In this document: positions 10,886-37,149 of the stretch, piece by piece
How positions within the stretch are numbered: the stretch's first letter is position 1
How the letters are laid out: every line of letters begins with the position of its first letter
DNA from: Candidatus Mailhella excrementigallinarum
Lineage (GTDB): Bacteria > Desulfobacterota > Desulfovibrionia > Desulfovibrionales > Desulfovibrionaceae
NCBI GenBank assembly: GCA_019113085.1
Contig: DXIB01000239.1
Span: 1-44,567, forward strand
Direction of reading: 5' to 3'
DNA length: 44,567 nucleotides
Notes under the pieces: model-generated
Databases searched by the model: none
What the model was told of the DNA's origin: nothing
What the model saw: only the letters and a program-made list of their open reading frames with translations
Made by a program: the position numbers and the translations under genes

Positions 10886-11029
10886 GTGGTTAAACGTGCG
10901 GCTGATATCCTCGAAAAATTCGCCGTAGGTTCGCTTTTGGTCGGACTTTATCAGGAAAAAATGTTTGCTGTTTTCCTGGCTTTCGCTGGAATTATCGCAT
11001 GCTTTTATCTGACAGGGAGGATGAAATGA
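10886..11029 (+). CDS. Small two-TM membrane protein (47 aa)
   Basis: Manual translation from GTG: MVKRAADILEKFAVGSLLVGLYQEKMFAVFLAFAGIIACFYLTGRMK; purine-rich AAGGA upstream; start uncertain. Confidence 0.55.
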   Translation: MVKRAADILEKFAVGSLLVGLYQEKMFAVFLAFAGIIACFYLTGRMK

Positions 11030-11115
11030 GCGGAAATACCCTGTGGATACTGGCCGCTCTTTTTATGGCCGGAGTATTTGTATTCGGCCTGTACATGAGC
11101 CGCCGCAAGACATGA
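11026..11115 (+). CDS. Small single-TM peptide (29 aa)
   Basis: MSGNTLWILAALFMAGVFVFGLYMSRRKT; GGGAGG RBS; ATGA overlap with the previous ORF. Confidence 0.6.
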   Translation: MSGNTLWILAALFMAGVFVFGLYMSRRKT

Positions 11116-11126
11116 TGAAAAACAAA

Positions 11127-11163
11127 AGCCCCCGCCCGGCGGATCAAACACCGGGCGGGGGCT
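11127..11163 (-). terminator. Intrinsic terminator after hicB (between convergent genes)
   Basis: 13-bp inverted repeat AGCCCCCGCCCGG/CCGGGCGGGGGCT followed by a T-rich tract on the minus strand. Confidence 0.85.
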
Positions 11164-11187
11164 GAAAACAGCAAGACGGAAAGCGCG

Positions 11188-11598
11188 TTACGCCAGCGCC
11201 ATGCTGGCTATATAGCCGGAGCGGGTCATGCCTGCCCTTTCCGCCTTGCGATCCAGCGCGGTCAGGGCGTTGCGCGGCATGGAAATCGTTACCTTTACCG
11301 GCGTTCTGTCCATGTCGGGCGCATGCACCATCTGGTACAGCGTATCAGGGGGAGTTTCCCAGCCCATTTCCCTGTCTTCCCGCTCCACCTTTTCGCGCAC
11401 ACGCGGCAGGGGAGTCGGATCGGGAATGGGGCGGCCTTCCCGGGCGTATTCCTCAAGGGAAATCCGTATGGCGTCCTCCGCCATTTCCATGGCTTCTTCC
11501 AGAGAATCGCCCTGCGTGGCCACTTCGGGAATATCCGGAACGCGCACTATATATCCGCCGTTTTTTTCCGGTTCAAATGCAACACCATAATATCTCAT
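11188..11598 (-). CDS. hicB: HicB-family antitoxin with C-terminal RHH domain
   Basis: YIVRVPDIPEVATQGDSLEEAMEMAEDAI motif; C-terminal VKVTISMPRNALTALDRKAERAGMTRSGYI; start refined to ATG 11598. Confidence 0.93.
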   Translation of the reverse strand: MRYYGVAFEPEKNGGYIVRVPDIPEVATQGDSLEEAMEMAEDAIRISLEEYAREGRPIPDPTPLPRVREKVEREDREMGWETPPDTLYQMVHAPDMDRTPVKVTISMPRNALTALDRKAERAGMTRSGYIASMALA

Positions 11599-11629
11599 AG
11601 GCGCTCCATCGGGGGGCCTCCCCCATGTT

Positions 11630-11809
11630 TTACAGAATCCGTATTCCTGTCTGTCTTTCGATGACCTTGACCATCCTGTCGTCAATCTCGTTATGCCGTC
11701 CCACAACGGTGACATAACGCCCGTCTTTCAGAATCCGGGTATGATTTCCGCCCTCCGCAAAGGTGAAACCGGCATCCCGGAGTTTTTTCAGGATATCCTT
11801 TCGTTTCAT
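11630..11809 (-). CDS. hicA: HicA-family mRNA interferase toxin (59 aa)
   Basis: Below the ORF-track cutoff; manual translation MKRKDILKKLRDAGFTFAEGGNHTRILKDGRYVTVVGRHNEIDDRMVKVIERQTGIRIL; GGAGG RBS; upstream of hicB. Confidence 0.92.
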   Translation of the reverse strand: MKRKDILKKLRDAGFTFAEGGNHTRILKDGRYVTVVGRHNEIDDRMVKVIERQTGIRIL

Positions 11810-11838
11810 CCCGCCTCCATGGGATATATAATTATGTA

Positions 11839-11873
11839 TTTTTTACATAATGTCCACTTTTTTATGTAAAAAA
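11839..11873. promoter_or_regulatory. Inverted repeat upstream of hicA, probable HicB operator
   Basis: TTTTTTACATAA-N11-TTATGTAAAAAA perfect 12-bp inverted repeat in the promoter region. Confidence 0.6.
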
Positions 11874-11887
11874 TCATAATTTCTTTT

Positions 11888-12136
11888 TTACAATACCTTT
11901 TCCTCGCCTGCGCGGTTCTGGCCGCACAGTTCCGCATACATCCGCGCGGCCACGGTCTTCCCTTCCGGGTCCAGCCGGGCGAAGTCAATGGCCGCCTGCA
12001 GAAAACGGGCGCGCAGCTTGACGCTCATGCGCCGGTGTTCGCGCAGGGTTTCCATCATCAGGGCCACGGCCCGGGCGTTCTGTTCCTTCATGGCCTCAGC
12101 CGACAGGGCGGATTCGTCCATATTACTGCGCGACAT
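11888..12136 (-). CDS. Small antirepressor-related protein
   Basis: GGAGG RBS before ATG 12136; RRMSVKLRARFLQAAIDFAR resembles RRMSPKMRDKALCYAVQMAK in the BRO protein at 16371-17165. Confidence 0.6.
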   Translation of the reverse strand: MSRSNMDESALSAEAMKEQNARAVALMMETLREHRRMSVKLRARFLQAAIDFARLDPEGKTVAARMYAELCGQNRAGEEKVL

Positions 12137-12362
12137 GTTCGGCCTCCCGTGGCTGCGCGCCGGCATGCGCCAGCATTTCACTCAGGGCGCGCATCTGCGC
12201 GTCAAGCTCCTTCGCCAGCGTGGCCGCTCCGGCCAGATCCCCCAGGTCCAGCTCCTCAAGGTCGCGGTCATTCAGAAAATGGTTCAACACCCGGATCTTG
12301 TCGGCTATGGGGTAGTATTGCGGCAGGAAATCATACATGGAACAGGGCATGGAATCGGACAT
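12123..12362 (-). CDS. Small protein whose RBS is targeted by the adjacent C4-like RNA (icd/kil-like position)
   Basis: 79 aa ORF; GAGGTG RBS overlaps the CACACGAG target; overlaps the next gene. Confidence 0.7.
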   Translation of the reverse strand: MSDSMPCSMYDFLPQYYPIADKIRVLNHFLNDRDLEELDLGDLAGAATLAKELDAQMRALSEMLAHAGAQPREAEHVAQ

Positions 12363-12398
12363 GGGGCACCTCGTGTGTTTGGGAAATTAAAATAAAAA

Positions 12399-12466
12399 GG
12401 CAGAACAACGCTCCCCGGTCACACGAGACCGCCGGGGCCTCACGGACACCCGGACGTTGTTCTGCC
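12399..12466 (-). ncRNA. C4/CI-like antisense RNA, unit B1 (cognate)
   Basis: 12-bp closing stem GGCAGAACAACG/CGTTGTTCTGCC, hairpin CGGTC-TCGTGT-GACCG; CTCGTGTG is complementary to CACACGAG upstream (12559-12566) and downstream (12370-12377). Confidence 0.8.
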
Positions 12467-12580
12467 AATATGAACCCGCCTGAAAGGGCGGAAAGTGGCA
12501 GATACGAAAAACGCCGCGATTCACTCCAGCTTGGGGCTGGCGAAGGCTCCGGCAGAGCCTCGTGTGTTCAGGGAACTTTA

Positions 12581-12608
12581 GGATTAACCGGAATATTCAC
12601 CTTGTCAA
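12581..12608 (-). promoter_or_regulatory. Putative sigma70 promoter for unit B1
   Basis: Perfect TTGACA (12608-12603), weak -10 TAATCC at 16-bp spacing. Confidence 0.5.
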
Positions 12609-12614
12609 GCAGGA

Positions 12615-13262
12615 TTAAAATGAACTGAGTTTTTTCAGTTCCCCTTGAAGGTGTTGTATTTTCTCTTTTTTCTTTATCAATTCATATGCTTCAATAATTA
12701 TTTCTGGCACATCTTTTGTTTGATATGCTGTCCCTGCACAAGAAATCATGAGCATGCCATGACCGCTGGTTGCTTCCTGAATAGATATATTGCATCCGAC
12801 AACAAAATTCGCACCCTTTTTAAGGCATTCAAATTTTGTATCAAGGATAGCACCTTTTTCTCCTTCTCGTATTTTTTCTTGATAAGTATGAGATTTTTCA
12901 CCAAAAAAATCAGTCCATGCCGATACTATTTCAGTCAGCGGTTCGGTACCTATCACTGCATGACCAGAAACAATTCCTTTAAATATTCCATCCCAAGAAA
13001 CAGGAGGAGGTGTTGTCAATAACTCAATATATTCCAATGCACTTTTTACTTTGTGTTTTAACATATCAGAAATTTCTTCTATTTCTTGACTCATTTTTTT
13101 ATTTTCTTCTTTTACATATTCATCCATACATTTTTGACACCACCCAGACGCATCAATCCCCTGCTTTCCCCAAAACTCTCTCTGGCCAGACATAGCAAGA
13201 GATGTTCCCAAGATGCCACCTATCTTTTTTCCACAAATAGAACAATTCACAGCATCAGCCAT
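12615..13262 (-). CDS. YbjQ/UPF0145-like domain protein with N-terminal zinc-binding motif
   Basis: CSICGKKI...CQKC, then GIVSGHAVIG...TDFFGEKSHTYQEKI...GANFVVG...MLMISCAGTA; AT-rich moron. Confidence 0.75.
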   Translation of the reverse strand: MADAVNCSICGKKIGGILGTSLAMSGQREFWGKQGIDASGWCQKCMDEYVKEENKKMSQEIEEISDMLKHKVKSALEYIELLTTPPPVSWDGIFKGIVSGHAVIGTEPLTEIVSAWTDFFGEKSHTYQEKIREGEKGAILDTKFECLKKGANFVVGCNISIQEATSGHGMLMISCAGTAYQTKDVPEIIIEAYELIKKKEKIQHLQGELKKLSSF

Positions 13263-13372
13263 AACCACCTCCATATTAAGTGGTCATTATCGTTAACCAA
13301 TGCTGTCTGCAAGACATGAGGGATAAACTTTATTTCGTTGATTTTGTTATGCACGTTGGCTGGACGCAAAAA

Positions 13373-13449
13373 AGGCCGGGAGCTCAAAACCGTCGTAGAA
13401 CGGCGGGCCTATTTCCCCGAAGGGTCTTGTATTAGCCCACTCCCGGCCT
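13373..13449 (-). ncRNA. C4/CI-like antisense RNA, unit A1 (orphan)
   Basis: Closing stem AGGCCGGGAG/CTCCCGGCCT, inner GGGC..CCC-TTCG-GGG..GCCC arm; guides TCTACGA and GTTTTGA complementary to upstream TCGTAGA (13519-13525) and TCAAAAC (13530-13536). Confidence 0.78.
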
Positions 13450-13551
13450 GAAAGTCGAAAAAACACCTTTGCATGTGCAAAGGGCACAAAAAACGCCACG
13501 CTGCGGGGTTGGCTGCCGTCTACGAAGGAGTTTTGAAGCTCCGTGGGATGG

Positions 13552-13580
13552 AGTAGAGCCAAAAAATACGGATCTGTCAA
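13552..13580 (-). promoter_or_regulatory. Putative sigma70 promoter for unit A1
   Basis: TTGACA-N17-TCTACT immediately upstream of the target boxes. Confidence 0.65.
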
Positions 13581-13737
13581 CTGCTCGGGCTTGCACTCAG
13601 AATAATTTAGAAATAGGTTTACTCAAGAAGTAACCATTTAATTTTTAAGGAGAAGATATGAGAAAATCATATTATCTTGACAACTAAAGCAGAGCGCAAA
13701 AGTAAAGAATATGCTTTTTACCAAGTGGGAGAGATTT

Positions 13738-14307
13738 ATGTGCAGACGTCTTTCAGTCATAATTATACTATCTTTTGCAATTTTGATTCACTTTCCTAAG
13801 TCTGCTGTAGCTGAAGGATTTGGAAAAATCGAATGGGGCATGTCCAAAGAGCAGGTAGAAAATCTAATAAATAGCAATCTTGAAAATTCATCATTCAAAA
13901 TATCACATTTTATTTTATATATGGATCAAATAAAAGTTCCATCTGAATATGTAAGTTATTCCTCAAAATTCAAGATATTTAACGTTGAATTTGATGCTGT
14001 TTTTTCATTTGACAATGCTCAACATCTCAAACAAATTGTATTATATCAAGAAAAACTTGGAGACGTAACAGTAATAACTAATGGTGGAGATTTGAATAAA
14101 AAATTTGAGAGTTATTTTACAAGACAATATGGAAAAATATATAAATCAAATTCGCTAAGATTTGATTTTATGCAATACTTAGATTTTCAATGGATGGGAA
14201 ATGAAACTTTTGTACATATGGTTGAACTTATTGATTTAAAGCCAAGTCAATCACAATATAAGCATGCAATCGAAATTATGATACGACAAGAAGATTCTCC
14301 ATTTTAA
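13738..14307 (+). CDS. Exported/periplasmic protein of unknown function (moron)
   Basis: Signal peptide MCRRLSVIIILSFAILIHFPKSAVA followed by EGFGKIEWGMSKEQV; very AT-rich; GGGAGA upstream. Confidence 0.75.
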   Translation: MCRRLSVIIILSFAILIHFPKSAVAEGFGKIEWGMSKEQVENLINSNLENSSFKISHFILYMDQIKVPSEYVSYSSKFKIFNVEFDAVFSFDNAQHLKQIVLYQEKLGDVTVITNGGDLNKKFESYFTRQYGKIYKSNSLRFDFMQYLDFQWMGNETFVHMVELIDLKPSQSQYKHAIEIMIRQEDSPF

Positions 14308-14359
14308 ACCATAAAGAGGGCAATGAAGGATTTCAGTACGCGCTGGCCGGACGCAAAAA

Positions 14360-14427
14360 GGCGGAACAACGCTCCCCGGTCCCCAGAGACCGCCGGGGCC
14401 TCACGGACACCCGGACGTTGTTCCGCC
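14360..14427 (-). ncRNA. C4/CI-like antisense RNA, unit B2 (orphan)
   Basis: Same scaffold as B1 with a compensatory stem change; guide CTCTGGGG complementary to upstream CCCCAGAG (14520-14527) and GGAGC to GCTCC (14530-14534). Confidence 0.8.
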
Positions 14428-14515
14428 AATATGCACCCGCCTGAAAGGGCGGAAAGTGGCAGATACGAAAAGCGCCGCGATTCACTCCAGCTTGGGGCTG
14501 GCGAAGGCTCCGGCA
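14360..14515. repeat. 156-bp direct repeat of 12399-12554
   Basis: Manual alignment gives 7 mismatches and no gaps. Confidence 0.95.
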
Positions 14516-14547
14516 ATGCCTCTGGGGTTGGAGCTTAAAAACAAAAA

Positions 14548-14627
14548 ACTCCGGGTGCTAGAAACGGCCAAACGAACCGCGGGCTATTTCCCCATAGAGG
14601 GTTTTATATTTCGCCCACACCCGGAGT
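14548..14627 (-). ncRNA. C4/CI-like antisense RNA, unit A2 (orphan, in tandem with B2)
   Basis: Closing stem ACTCCGGGTG/CACCCGGAGT, same inner arm layout as A1; guides CGTTTGG and GTTTCTAG complementary to upstream CCAAACG (14703-14709) and CTAGAAAC (14718-14725). Confidence 0.78.
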
Positions 14628-14792
14628 ATACACTCCACATATTGCCCTATGACCGACACATTCGGCGGACATAAAAAATCCACGGATTCAGGCGTGCCCC
14701 TGCGTTTGGTTCTAGCTGTTTCTAGTAGCTGTAGCCAAATTGGCGGATAAGTGAAAAAAATTCAAGAGGGGAGACTCAAAAAATTTTCTTTA

Positions 14793-15656
14793 TTAAAAAT
14801 ATGCTGTCAATATAACTTCTTTTGTTTTTTTGTTACAAAATAAGACAGCTTTTAGTTTAGTTACAATGCATTTATGTGTTATATTACAAGCATAAAAATT
14901 CCCCATCTTTGGACTCATGAAATCATTTGCTTCATAGATATATGGCAAATTATCATCGCCATAAAGTGTAACAACAAAAAATACTTCAAGATTTTTTTTC
15001 AATTGCCTCGCTTGATCTGGTGATACATTTTCTAGTACAATATTATCTATAAAAAGATTAGTTTTATTTATAAAAAATATTCCATACTCTATACCAGTTT
15101 CTTTTGTGTAACTTTGTCCCATACCAAACGAATTATATCCTACATTTCTTGAAAATTTCGTATTTGATATAATTAGAACAGAGTTTCCCCACACCTTATT
15201 GAACGATGGTCCTTCACCTATATGTGGATATAAAGTCAATTTCTTTGTGTCAGCATTGTAATTTATCTCGGGATAATATGTGTTTGCATGTGTTTTATAG
15301 GGAACAGCTTTAAATATAAGATATTCTTTGTTTTGCATTATTTTTTCAATTATAGGTTTAAAGTTATCCATAAAATCACTAGTTGGTGTAAATTCATCTT
15401 TTTTATTTAGCGATAATGCACTATATATTTTTTTTATATCATCATATTTTGAAGGATAACTATATACAACTTCATTTTTAGTATGAACTTCTGCAATTTC
15501 TGGACTATTATTGGACACATTTAAAGATTTACTTGTTTCAGAATTAAAAATATCATTTATCCTATTAGAATAACTCCAACTATTTTTTTGTACTTCACAT
15601 CCCGCCCCCAGAGCCATGACCAGTGCCACCGTAGCCAGCAAAAGCGACTTTCTCAT
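14793..15656 (-). CDS. Lipoprotein of unknown function (moron; superinfection-exclusion candidate)
   Basis: MRKSLLLATVALVMALGAGC lipobox; GGAGG RBS; very AT-rich body. Confidence 0.8.
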   Translation of the reverse strand: MRKSLLLATVALVMALGAGCEVQKNSWSYSNRINDIFNSETSKSLNVSNNSPEIAEVHTKNEVVYSYPSKYDDIKKIYSALSLNKKDEFTPTSDFMDNFKPIIEKIMQNKEYLIFKAVPYKTHANTYYPEINYNADTKKLTLYPHIGEGPSFNKVWGNSVLIISNTKFSRNVGYNSFGMGQSYTKETGIEYGIFFINKTNLFIDNIVLENVSPDQARQLKKNLEVFFVVTLYGDDNLPYIYEANDFMSPKMGNFYACNITHKCIVTKLKAVLFCNKKTKEVILTAYF

Positions 15657-15840
15657 AAAGGCAAACCTCCGTTTTCGCCTTGTAGCGTTAACGGAGGCCT
15701 TCACGCAAGGGTGTCCGCTTGCGGCAGAGGTGGCACATCTAAAAATAAACATATTATCAGCAGGTTATGGCAAACGGTTGAATATGATCAATTTTTAGGA
15801 TAATATTATCTTCATAATAAAGGTATAAAAAGGAGATGAC

Positions 15841-16026
15841 ATGAAAAAAGTTGTCACAAAAAGCATCGCCTTTTTTTTCGCCTTGGGATGCATGATTTCG
15901 TTTTTTCCCCGCTCCACAAGCGCCCGTGACGCTCTGATGAAGCCCTGTTCAGATGACACAGGCATAGCGCGGCATTTCAGCGCGGCATGGAAGCACATTT
16001 CCCGCGCTGTGGAATCCCATGGATAA
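15841..16026 (+). CDS. Small hypothetical protein with hydrophobic N-terminus
   Basis: 61 aa; AAGGAG RBS. Confidence 0.5.
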   Translation: MKKVVTKSIAFFFALGCMISFFPRSTSARDALMKPCSDDTGIARHFSAAWKHISRAVESHG

Positions 16027-16062
16027 GTCCCGCCCCAAAAGAGGAATAAAAAGGAGGCCATA

Positions 16063-16233
16063 ATGGCTCTGCCCATTTTTCCGACTCCCACACTCACCGG
16101 AAATGACGCAAAGCGTTTTATAAAACGGATGATGGACAAGAAACAGAGACCTGTTCCGGTTTCTGTCGATCTCGCCAAAGTTCGTGAAGCGGTTTTGCAG
16201 GTGAAAAGTGAAAAGAAACAACTTTCAAATTGA
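16063..16233 (+). CDS. Small putative antitoxin-like protein (56 aa)
   Basis: AAGGAGG RBS; MALPIFPTPTLTGNDAKRFIKRM... resembles, from recall only, short genes that precede GNAT toxins. Confidence 0.6.
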   Translation: MALPIFPTPTLTGNDAKRFIKRMMDKKQRPVPVSVDLAKVREAVLQVKSEKKQLSN

Positions 16234-16312
16234 AGGTTTCAAACTCTGCCCCGTGCTGGATTTTTCAATCTTCGCGGGGTGTTCTGTTTTTGCTGGCGAC
16301 AAAGATATAACT
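16208..16312 (+). pseudogene. Possible truncated GNAT-toxin 5' end
   Basis: Overlaps the antitoxin-like gene; ...FAGDKDITE resembles F.CGD.DL.E starts and then runs into a hairpin and the convergent BRO gene. Confidence 0.3.
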
Positions 16313-16345
16313 GAAGCCCCCGGCCATGAGGTCGGGGGCTTCAGT
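16310..16345. terminator. Hairpin terminator after the BRO gene, possibly bidirectional
   Basis: ACTGAAGCCCCCGGCC-ATGA-GGTCGGGGGCTTCAGT. Confidence 0.75.
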
Positions 16346-16370
16346 GTTCAGGGAGCATATCTTCCGCGCT

Positions 16371-17165
16371 TCACGCGGCAAAAAGCGGCGAGCGCCAGCG
16401 GACGAGGTAATAAATCTTGTTTGAGATATGGACGGGGAAATTGCGGCGCATCATCTTGCCGAAGGCTGTGAGCGTGATAGAAGGCACGTTTTCCCGCTCG
16501 GCCCACTCAAGATATGCGGTATAAAGTTTGATGCACTGAATGCCGGAACTTCTGCGCGCTTCCTCCAGATATTCACGCGCCCAGGATTCAGCCTTTTCCA
16601 GCGGGGAGTCGTCGTGAAGAGGAGTAAATTCCGGGCCGGAAATGTAATAGCAGAATTCCAGAAAATAGCGTTTCACATCCGCGCCGTAACGGCCCTTGGC
16701 CATTTGCACGGCATAGCACAGCGCCTTGTCGCGCATCTTGGGTGACATACGACGCATAATCTGTTCCAGTTCTTCGTTGTTCATGCCGGAAAGAGAAATA
16801 TTGTCGTTTCCTCCAATATTCTTTTTTCCTCCGGGCATCTTGTAGCAACCGTTCTTACGGAGTGAGGGCAGCACATCTCCGGCCAGCCATTTTTGAAAAG
16901 GCAGAGCGGCGGTTTTGTCGCTCCGGCCCAAAAAGAAATACAACCCCTGTTCGGAAAGAGTCAGCATTTCCTGTGTGCCAGAGGGGGTCACAACGGATGT
17001 GATCCCCCGCCATTCTTCCGGAACATGTGCAATACGGCTTGAACCATTCCATTCATAACCTAAAGCCAAAGCCACATCCTTCGCCACGAACCACGGGTTC
17101 CCGTTCTCGTCAAGAGCCACGCGCACCCTGTTGCCTTCAAACAGATACGGCATAATCTGAGACAT
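16371..17165 (-). CDS. BRO-N domain antirepressor-like protein with C-terminal primase-type winged-helix
   Basis: FEGNRVRV...PWFVAKDVALALGY...LSEQGLYFFLGRSDK..ALPFQKWLAGDVLPSLRKNG; start refined to ATG 17165 with GGAGG RBS. Confidence 0.9.
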   Translation of the reverse strand: MSQIMPYLFEGNRVRVALDENGNPWFVAKDVALALGYEWNGSSRIAHVPEEWRGITSVVTPSGTQEMLTLSEQGLYFFLGRSDKTAALPFQKWLAGDVLPSLRKNGCYKMPGGKKNIGGNDNISLSGMNNEELEQIMRRMSPKMRDKALCYAVQMAKGRYGADVKRYFLEFCYYISGPEFTPLHDDSPLEKAESWAREYLEEARRSSGIQCIKLYTAYLEWAERENVPSITLTAFGKMMRRNFPVHISNKIYYLVRWRSPLFAA

Positions 17166-17176
17166 TTTCCCTCCGT

Positions 17177-17542
17177 TCATCTCATCCGCGCCTTGCGCTG
17201 TTCCGTCTCCTGCTCCCGGCGGGAGGCTTCCAGCGTCCAGTGTTCCAGCCACATCAGGTGCCCGAATATCCGTTCGTCGATCCTGATGCCCAGCCAGCCC
17301 GCCGCCACCTGCACGGCGTTGTAATCCAGACCCAGCGGCCCCAGGCCCGCGCGCCACTGGGTCCGGCAGCCCAGCCACAGCCTGCGGGTTGTCCACAGGC
17401 CGGGCACAAGCCGGGGCTGGCGCTTGTCGCAGCCCCGGCAGTCCACCTTCTGATTTCGTCTCTGGCGGCGCTCTACGCAGCCGGCGCAGTATTTCGCGCG
17501 CCCCGCGTCGTGGAGCCAGCGCCACCAGATTTCGAGTTTTTT
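17177..17542 (-). CDS. Tail assembly chaperone gpT-like segment (DUF1799-like), reached by -1 frameshift
   Basis: TQWRAGLGPLGLDYNAV motif; frame is open from the slippery site (KLEIWWRWLH...). Confidence 0.8.
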   Translation of the reverse strand, partial: KKLEIWWRWLHDAGRAKYCAGCVERRQRRNQKVDCRGCDKRQPRLVPGLWTTRRLWLGCRTQWRAGLGPLGLDYNAVQVAAGWLGIRIDERIFGHLMWLEHWTLEASRREQETEQRKARMR

Positions 17543-36102: not shown

Positions 36103-36183
36103 AAACTCCTGCGTATAGGCGCATATCTATGCCCTCAAATGCAGGCAGAGCCAAGGAAAATGAAGTATGGCAGGCGATGTCAA

Positions 36184-36231
36184 ACGGCTTTCACGCCGTC
36201 AACGGGGGTTCGAATCCCCCTGGGGACGCCA
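36184..36231 (+). other. att site: 3' fragment of tRNA-Glu(TTC), not an intact tRNA
   Basis: CTTTCAC anticodon loop, GGTTCGAATCC T-arm and GGGGACGCCA end present; no 5' GTCCCC acceptor strand or D-arm upstream. Confidence 0.88.
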
Positions 36232-36240
36232 AATGAAATC

Positions 36241-36271
36241 AAAGGGTTGCATAAAAATGCAGCCCTTTTTT
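36241..36271 (+). terminator. Intrinsic terminator after the tRNA fragment
   Basis: AAAGGGTTGCAT-AAAA-ATGCAGCCCTTTTTT. Confidence 0.75.
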
Positions 36272-36276
36272 CGTAT

Positions 36277-36308
36277 GTGGGGCAAATTTGCCCCACGCTC
36301 TGCCCCAC
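36277..36308. repeat. TGCCCCAC x3 (one inverted), probable arm sites of a second, older element
   Basis: GTGGGGCAAATTTGCCCCAC palindrome plus a direct copy at 36301. Confidence 0.55.
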
Positions 36309-36399
36309 AAATTTGGAAAATTTTGATAATTGTGTAGGATACAATTTATGGGTATCCTCTTTATCGCCAAAACTAACTCCTAAGATTCAAAGGAAAAAC

Positions 36400-37149
36400 A
36401 TGCCACCGATCAAAAAGATGAGTGTGGAAGATGTCCTCACCATTCGTAGGCTTTTGAGTTCCTGTGAGCTAGCTGAAAGAGATTCTTTTGGCATGATTGA
36501 ACCCCTTAACCGTGGGAAACTTGAATCAGCTGTTGCTCGTCAAATGACGGGACATGGTGAAATATTCAAATACGATACAGTTGAAGCGGTTGGGGCAACT
36601 CTATTTTATGGTATTGTCATGAGTCATGCTTTTGAAAATGGAAATAAGCGTACTGGGCTGATTACATTACTTATATTTTTGGACCAAAATCAGAGTATGC
36701 TTGTTGAAGTTGACGAAGATGAACTTTATCAATTTACACGTTCTGTCGCAGCACATGAAATTGCTCTACCTGATGGACTAGAACGAAACAGCGACTCCGA
36801 GGTTGAATCAATCACTCGATGGATTGAACAGCATTCACGCACAAAAATTCTTGGCGACCGCGCAATAAAATTCCCTGAACTAAGAGTAATCTTGGAAGCT
36901 TTCGGATGTACCTTCGAATCACCAAAGAAAAATTTTATCAAGATTCGCCGGAGACCTTATATGACGAATATTGGATACCCTAGACAGGATTTTGAGTTGT
37001 CCATTGACACTATTAAAAAAATACGGAAAGATTTACATTTGTCAGAGATAGATGGTGTGGACTCATCTGGTTTTTATGACTACGCAGCTGGTGTTACTAC
37101 TTTTGTGAATACGCATAGAAACTTGCTGAAAAGGTTGGCTGCACTATAG
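36400..37149 (+). CDS. Fic/Doc-family protein with C-terminal extension
   Basis: LESAVAR and HAFENGNKRTG Doc-type motif; start refined to ATG 36400. Confidence 0.9.
   Translation: MPPIKKMSVEDVLTIRRLLSSCELAERDSFGMIEPLNRGKLESAVARQMTGHGEIFKYDTVEAVGATLFYGIVMSHAFENGNKRTGLITLLIFLDQNQSMLVEVDEDELYQFTRSVAAHEIALPDGLERNSDSEVESITRWIEQHSRTKILGDRAIKFPELRVILEAFGCTFESPKKNFIKIRRRPYMTNIGYPRQDFELSIDTIKKIRKDLHLSEIDGVDSSGFYDYAAGVTTFVNTHRNLLKRLAAL

Follow-up and report, generated by a model that had tools for sequence, protein, structure and literature searches.

Four short RNA units, each exposing two guides, were found on the minus strand in a variable patch of a tailed prophage. One of them, B1, is a complete switch in front of an operon, and the other three, A1, B2 and A2, stand as spares with guides of other specificity. 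It is probable that the spares have been retained as cross-phage guides, originating from related phages whose operons they would silence in trans. From their sequences, they appear to be control heads, either complete or trimmed, that recombination brought in, and not the spacer-like acquisitions of an immunity library that an earlier note on this DNA had proposed.

Locus and Layout of the RNA Units

The window (the whole 44,567-nt stretch analysed) is contig C30 of a host genome that is 87% complete, and it carries the terminase, portal, head protease, tape measure and primase genes of a tailed prophage. As dsrA in the host genome scored above the family cut-off, the host is taken to be a sulfite reducer, probably related to the Desulfovibrionaceae of the gut.

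The RNA patch is flanked on one side by a Bro-N antirepressor gene (16371-17216) and on the other by a hicAB pair (11188-11809), the latter coming after the B1-gated operon. The Bro-N gene is located directly behind tail chaperone genes and has no RNA head of its own. In the sister prophage G016, a different hicAB allele was observed at this place, together with a second HicA/HicB-like pair upstream, read by eye (L031:8545-9183 and 10971-11244). Elsewhere in the window, at 36139-37149 on the plus strand, a gene with a Doc-like (Fic) domain was recognised by PHROG (E 1.7e-18).

All four units described in the earlier note were confirmed, and their coordinates were fixed as listed in Table 1. 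Its further observations also held: the guides of B1, A1, B2 and A2 are each complementary to the unit's own upstream box pair, and only B1 has a second pair on the ribosome-binding site of a gene, such a pair being absent from A1, A2 and B2. Summed guide duplex energies, which are predictions, were lowest for the cognate boxes in all four RNAs.

Table 1. Features of the RNA patch, with positions in the window.
Feature	Position	Strand	Remarks
Second 79-aa ORF of the operon	11888..12127	-	no Pfam or PHROG family
79-aa ORF gated by B1, helical	12123..12362	-	no Pfam or PHROG family
B1 downstream box pair	12370..12385	-	overlaps GAGG ribosome-binding site; gene start 12362
B1 RNA, scaffold B, live head	12394..12468	-	guides CTCGTGTG 12420-12427, GGGAG 12411-12415
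B1 upstream box pair	12559..12575	-	TTCCC ... CACACGAG; complement of B1 guides
B1 promoter-like element (putative, from sequence)	12580..12608	-	TTGACA-17 nt-AATCCT
Cargo gene, YbjQ domain	12615..13274	-	36% GC; Pfam PF01906, E 1.6e-12
A1 RNA, sRNA-Xcc1 member, spare	13366..13448	-	guides TCTACGA 13393-13399, GTTTTGA 13384-13390
A1 promoter-like element and upstream boxes	13519..13580	-	TTGACA 13575-13580; TCAAAAC 13530-13536; TCGTAGA 13519-13525
Cargo gene converging on B2	13711..14307	+	29% GC; weak Pfam PF22300, below cut-off
B2 RNA, scaffold B, spare	14355..14429	-	guides CTCTGGGG 14381-14388, GGGAGC 14371-14376
B2 upstream boxes	14520..14534	-	GCTCC ... CCCCAGAG; abut A2 T-run; no promoter of their own
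A2 RNA, divergent sRNA-Xcc1 relative, spare	14541..14626	-	guides CGTTTGG 14568-14574, GTTTCTAG 14558-14565
A2 upstream boxes	14703..14725	-	CTAGAAAC 14718-14725; CCAAACG 14703-14709; upstream just a weak TTGAAT
Cargo gene, lipoprotein-like signal (by eye)	14793..15752	-	31% GC; no Pfam, PHROG or PADLOC family

The units had been described as an array, but they are not compactly arranged: AT-rich cargo genes (29-36% GC versus 53-57%) sit between B1, A1 and the B2-A2 pair. The T-rich runs said to end each leader were present inside the leaders, but not always at their end. No contig from eight public runs bridges A2 to B2, so this junction is given by the present assembly alone.

When each RNA was folded against 200 shuffles, the z values were -4.75, -3.23, -4.50 and -3.17 for B1, A1, B2 and A2, respectively, and for each unit at most one shuffle in 200 was as stable as the native sequence. 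A -35-like pentamer at the distance seen in B1 was present in 135 of 145 homologous units, compared with 28.6 expected from shuffles. A2 and B2 are among the 10 units without this conserved element, and the B2 RNA could arise only by read-through from A2. The consensus promoter scan did not flag the B1 promoter-like element, and the promoter and terminator scan of the locus remained at chance level.

No regular repeats and no repeat-spacer layout were found at the locus. PADLOC returned no defence-system match for the five neighbouring ORFs, and no dedicated effector gene was found among them.

B1 Unit and Its Operon

B1 and B2 differ at 12 of 175 positions. Five of the differences lie inside the RNA, three of them in the guide loop and two forming a compensatory change of an A-U to a G-C pair, and three further differences are the matching changes in the upstream box.

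No recognisable antirepressor was detected by Pfam or PHROG in the B1-gated operon. For the first 79-aa ORF, atlas look-alikes were Derepression, DUF1484 and XAC0095, at 0.84, which are to be read as leads only. The second showed a faint likeness to the middle of the prophage Bro-N protein (BLASTP E 0.008, 14 of 39 positions identical) and no match to another Bro-N protein.

Scaffolds and Rfam Assignment

All 4227 Rfam families were scanned over 11500-16500 at E values up to 5. A1 was identified as sRNA-Xcc1 (RF02221) with 66.4 bits, above the gathering threshold of 53, and A2 aligned to the same family over its full length with 47.6 bits (E 1.9e-6), below that threshold. Neither B1 nor B2 fitted any family, RF02221 included, at E up to 5, and the B units of L155-L157 gave no RF02221 match at E up to 0.05. 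Scaffold B is a scaffold not listed in Rfam.

The comparison with the C4 family that had been suggested earlier gave no match to C4 (RF01695), nor to isrK (RF01394), over the same interval and E range. The description of the units as C4/CI-like was borne out for the two-box logic, which is documented by covariation, but not for C4 family membership, scaffold A being sRNA-Xcc1 and scaffold B having no Rfam family. Compensatory pairing was seen at 8 of 18 pairs in scaffold A (26 sequences) and at 11 of 27 pairs in scaffold B (10 sequences), both counts being inflated by relatedness.

A third sRNA-Xcc1-like RNA, of another subgroup and with its own unrelated key, was found in the host genome at C22:11360-11449 (L174). 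Its downstream match falls just inside the start of the next gene.

Guide-Box Covariation in Related Genomes

Models built from relatives were run on 34 genus and 151 family genomes. Matches of the A and B models were obtained in 19 and 9 of the genus genomes and in 42 and 18 of the family genomes, respectively. The 178 unique hits yielded 171 units, hits that were below 25 bits or too short and two weak L124 hits being dropped.

The typical unit consists of a promoter, a box pair, a leader, the RNA, a T-run, a box pair on GAGG and the start codon, in this order. An upstream box pair of at least 11 nt was present in 104 of 121 A and 42 of 47 B units, compared with 9.9% and 9.5% with swapped flanks. 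Among units having a ribosome site, a match of at least 7 nt (one G-U allowed) was found in 89 of 113 A and 34 of 42 B units, compared with 6.3% and 4.4% after swapping; as the units are kin, all these counts overstate independence. Guide-target covariation across homologues, raised in the earlier note, was confirmed, with boxes far above swapped flanks and spares that stay matched to their boxes. The live units were diverse in their keys, with 110 distinct a-boxes among 130.

The first ORF was of the antirepressor type (Rha, Bro-N, P22_AR_N, ORF6N, AntA, ANT or KilA-N) in 47 of 118 cases. The other 71 first ORFs had no antirepressor domain and were mostly short, with no named function. Second ORFs (n = 50) included 11 Bro-N and 5 primase genes, the latter matching the gene order of P4. 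The sequences show each unit to be the control head of a family preceding antirepressor-type or primase operons, in which the guide and both box pairs change together.

Two kinds of deviating heads were noted. In the mosaic heads L004/L181 and L006, the guide fits one of the two box pairs and not the other; in one head this is the upstream pair, in the other the ribosome-site pair, which suggests crossovers inside the unit, or misassembly. In an A-head subgroup (L062, L070, L172, L178 and L195), the upstream boxes are matched and the shared ribosome-site region is unmatched; one head of this subgroup leads a CI-type helix-turn-helix gene.

Live and Spare Units in Sister Prophages

The flanks of the G016 sister prophage are 92-99% identical to the window. 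There, the 79-aa gene is intact and is headed by the B2 guide, whose upstream box is perfect and whose ribosome-site match extends over 6 nt. Further upstream lies a leaderless RNA with the A1 guide, followed by no more than the initial 15 codons of this 79-aa gene.

The operon is headed by a different A guide in the public runs X8 and X10, where the change of guide is accompanied by changes in both its upstream and its ribosome-site boxes. In the B2 slot, these runs have the B1 guide, which no target follows, and the A1 RNA is kept upstream without its boxes. The same order was found in runs X3 and X7, giving four studies altogether. Since the B1 guide sits in this type of sister as a spare, the spare matches the live target of the window.

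A RNAs with other guides were present in the B2 slot in X1, X17 and X2, so that the RNA type in a given slot differs between sisters; cargo genes were also reordered at the RNA copies. All layouts from these runs are contig readings, with no contig spanning the whole stretch or joining A2 to B2.

The earlier claim that the orphan units carry foreign specificities stood in that such guides are live in other phages, but the matching was weak: 5 of 17 spares matched live targets elsewhere, compared with 2.0 expected, and the match of A2 to a foreign target was at chance level. A1 and B2 failed this test, the perfect target of A1 heading a truncated gene in G016 and the live target of B2 pairing over 6 nt. 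Because of shared origin, matches between spares and foreign targets are expected with or without a benefit.

Among 9589 start regions of the host genome (87% complete), A1 and A2 had no hits, B2 had 12 compared with 10.4 expected, and B1 had 5 compared with 9.0. No target of a spare beyond chance was thus detected in these regions.

Recurrence of Stacked Units

A first survey revealed 15 other clusters of two or three RNAs, one of which consisted of two complete operons. Upstream heads often lead a stub of the downstream head's gene, cut after 11-40 codons. In five arrangements (L155 with L329, L156, L324 with L325, L326, and L328; 5 of 8 metagenome hits), extra B RNAs were located right behind the cognate RNA, without leader or boxes. 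In L155, L326 and L329, the extra guide fits the ribosome-site box that is live in L157 and L333, and some extra RNAs have damaged arms (L156).

Two of the extra B RNAs were of unusual form. At L325:2031-2179, two guide modules lie within one outer stem. At L328:1934-2014, a long loop is complementary to the common b-box and the spacer, not to the a-box, and this RNA is possibly a broad-range guide.

Three annotated 381-nt repeats precede the Bro-N gene of the Xylella phage Xfas53, and each contains an RF02221 RNA whose guide and boxes are specific to it, giving three keys. Look-alike viral records contained 6, 5, 3 and 2 units. Of the 19 units in the Xfas53-type arrays, 18 match a 7-nt upstream box, and a ribosome-site box (6-7 nt) was likewise matched by 18; 11 keys were distinguished, and one spare is the live key of three other arrays.

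Identical neighbours were absent from 14 and from 32 pairs, which argues against plain duplication. When units were shuffled among arrays, however, the mean was 2.1 and 0/32 did not reach significance (P 0.07), and identical copies are collapsed in short-read assemblies. A 380-nt tandem pattern, searched with a single spacing, occurred at 53 genome loci, of which only 2 held the RNA. At these 2 loci, tandem units with different guides were present in Haematospirillum (three, L295) and, outside Proteobacteria, in Schaalia (two, L296).

When A RNAs joined directly to each other were sought with a pattern, 28 viral hits were returned with no A RNA among them, and the metagenome scan with the B leader gave no hit. 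In Acinetobacter phage 4316 (L263:2501-2584, OM334891), an unannotated sRNA-Xcc1 of 79.7 bits with matching boxes was found before a KilA-N gene.

Proposed Mechanism and Alternative Explanations

By analogy with P1 C4 and P4 CI, a short RNA would be cut from the leader transcript. It would bind the ribosome-site boxes, blocking translation, and the upstream boxes, limiting its own synthesis. For the spares, a new head may have taken over the operon, with the displaced RNA staying upstream; the lysogen that keeps it would then also silence incoming or co-resident phages still using the old key. Crossovers between RNA copies would shuffle the intervening cargo genes as well. An anti-phage role of the spares is plausible.

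The same loci could have accumulated as recombination debris, with heads swapped often, displaced ones lingering without benefit and any effects in trans being incidental. The stubs of 11-40 codons left behind upstream heads, the lack of a -35 element in A2 and B2, the damaged arms of extra RNAs such as L156 and the weak cross-match enrichment (5 of 17 against 2.0) would all fit. However, deletions have repeatedly taken the leader, boxes and gene and spared the whole RNA (G016, X8 and X10), whole RNAs of another lineage are inserted inside leaders, and stacks reach up to 5-6 units. Of the Xylella Temecula1 copies, moreover, four of five were reported in vesicle RNA and all in cells (PMC12189769), and such passive lingering is considered rather unlikely.

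A moron-shuffling platform, in which the spare heads would serve the cargo genes as promoters, terminators or recombination handles and would not be kept for their guides, is improbable: neither the Xfas53-type arrays nor the RNA-only inserts contain cargo, the guides and boxes of the spares remain matched, and the RNA type of a slot changes between sisters. This stands against the position of A1, which precedes the co-oriented YbjQ gene, the end of B2 facing a convergent gene, and the reordering of cargo at RNA copies in sister phages. A role of the RNAs as antitoxins of small toxic peptides (addiction modules) or as IsrK-like activators, with spares neutralising or triggering genes of other elements, was also considered, given that many heads lead small ORFs (71 of 118 first ORFs without an antirepressor domain), that sRNA-Xcc1 precedes symE in Xanthomonas integrons (bioRxiv 2025.06.18.660453) and that IsrK activates in trans (PMC4825925). 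Yet the pairing of the a-guide covers the GAGG site itself, as would be expected of a blocking RNA, and the small ORFs matched no toxin family in Pfam, PHROG or PADLOC; this role is highly improbable.

If the spares are indeed retained as cross-phage guides, prophage immunity would gain a layer that consists of RNA only and has several specificities, and the diversity of keys among live units would be accounted for. An Rfam family regarded as a virulence RNA would obtain a new reading, and an unlisted scaffold would be added. Natural guide-target pairs would be ready for a swap test, and it could be predicted which prophages block which.

A wider generalisation, for which we see about equal grounds for and against, would be that temperate phages keep expandable, protein-free two-box RNA libraries as a heritable record of their rivals' antirepressor keys. 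Recombination would have assembled these libraries in bacterial groups far apart from one another, using several unrelated scaffolds. Both the Xfas53 repeats and the sRNA cluster of Xylella read as 'virulence' RNAs would then be libraries of this kind, and the scaffolds compact programmable translation repressors. No description of multi-key stacks, or of sRNA-Xcc1 as a two-box switch, was found in a literature search conducted mostly at listing level and, beyond that, on freely accessible papers.

Comparison with Known Systems

The founder of sRNA-Xcc1 is a discrete 88-nt RNA, established by Northern blotting and RACE (PMC2996969). A five-copy cluster lies among antirepressor-annotated ORFs in Xylella Temecula1 (PMC12189769, supplement 4), and one copy precedes an ORF6N gene (bioRxiv 2020.03.17.996009). 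In the available parts of this literature, the RNA is treated as a virulence or vesicle RNA, with guides, boxes and immunity unmentioned, whereas here it appears as a switch with a variable key.

With CRISPR, the locus shares the presence of several guides of foreign origin that vary between close relatives. In contrast, the additions here would be captured RNA genes, brought in by recombination, and no repeat-spacer layout, effector or adaptation protein was seen nearby.

The layout of P4 CI resembles that of the family units, and IsrK of Gifsy-1 activates rather than represses (PMC4825925). In P4 CI (seqA/seqC) and IsrK, as in the present units, the RNA is embedded in a leader, and its targets lie on either side of it. 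Unlike here, those systems carry one RNA per operon, IsrK activates its own operon, and no Rfam match to them was obtained.

In P1 and P7, heteroimmunity is set by the C4 sequence, with the P1 order c4-icd-ant (PMC12197685). In the immI system (C4, icd, ant; RF01695) as in the present family, the short RNA is structured and exposes two guides, one box pair precedes it and another covers the ribosome site, and antirepressor-type genes lie downstream. The differences are the missing match to the C4 model, the two other scaffolds, the four keys in one locus, three of them without a gene, and the window's operon, in which icd and ant are not recognisable. The stacks may be described as C4-type immunity in a variant form, in which one scaffold is unlisted and for which there is population evidence of key exchange.
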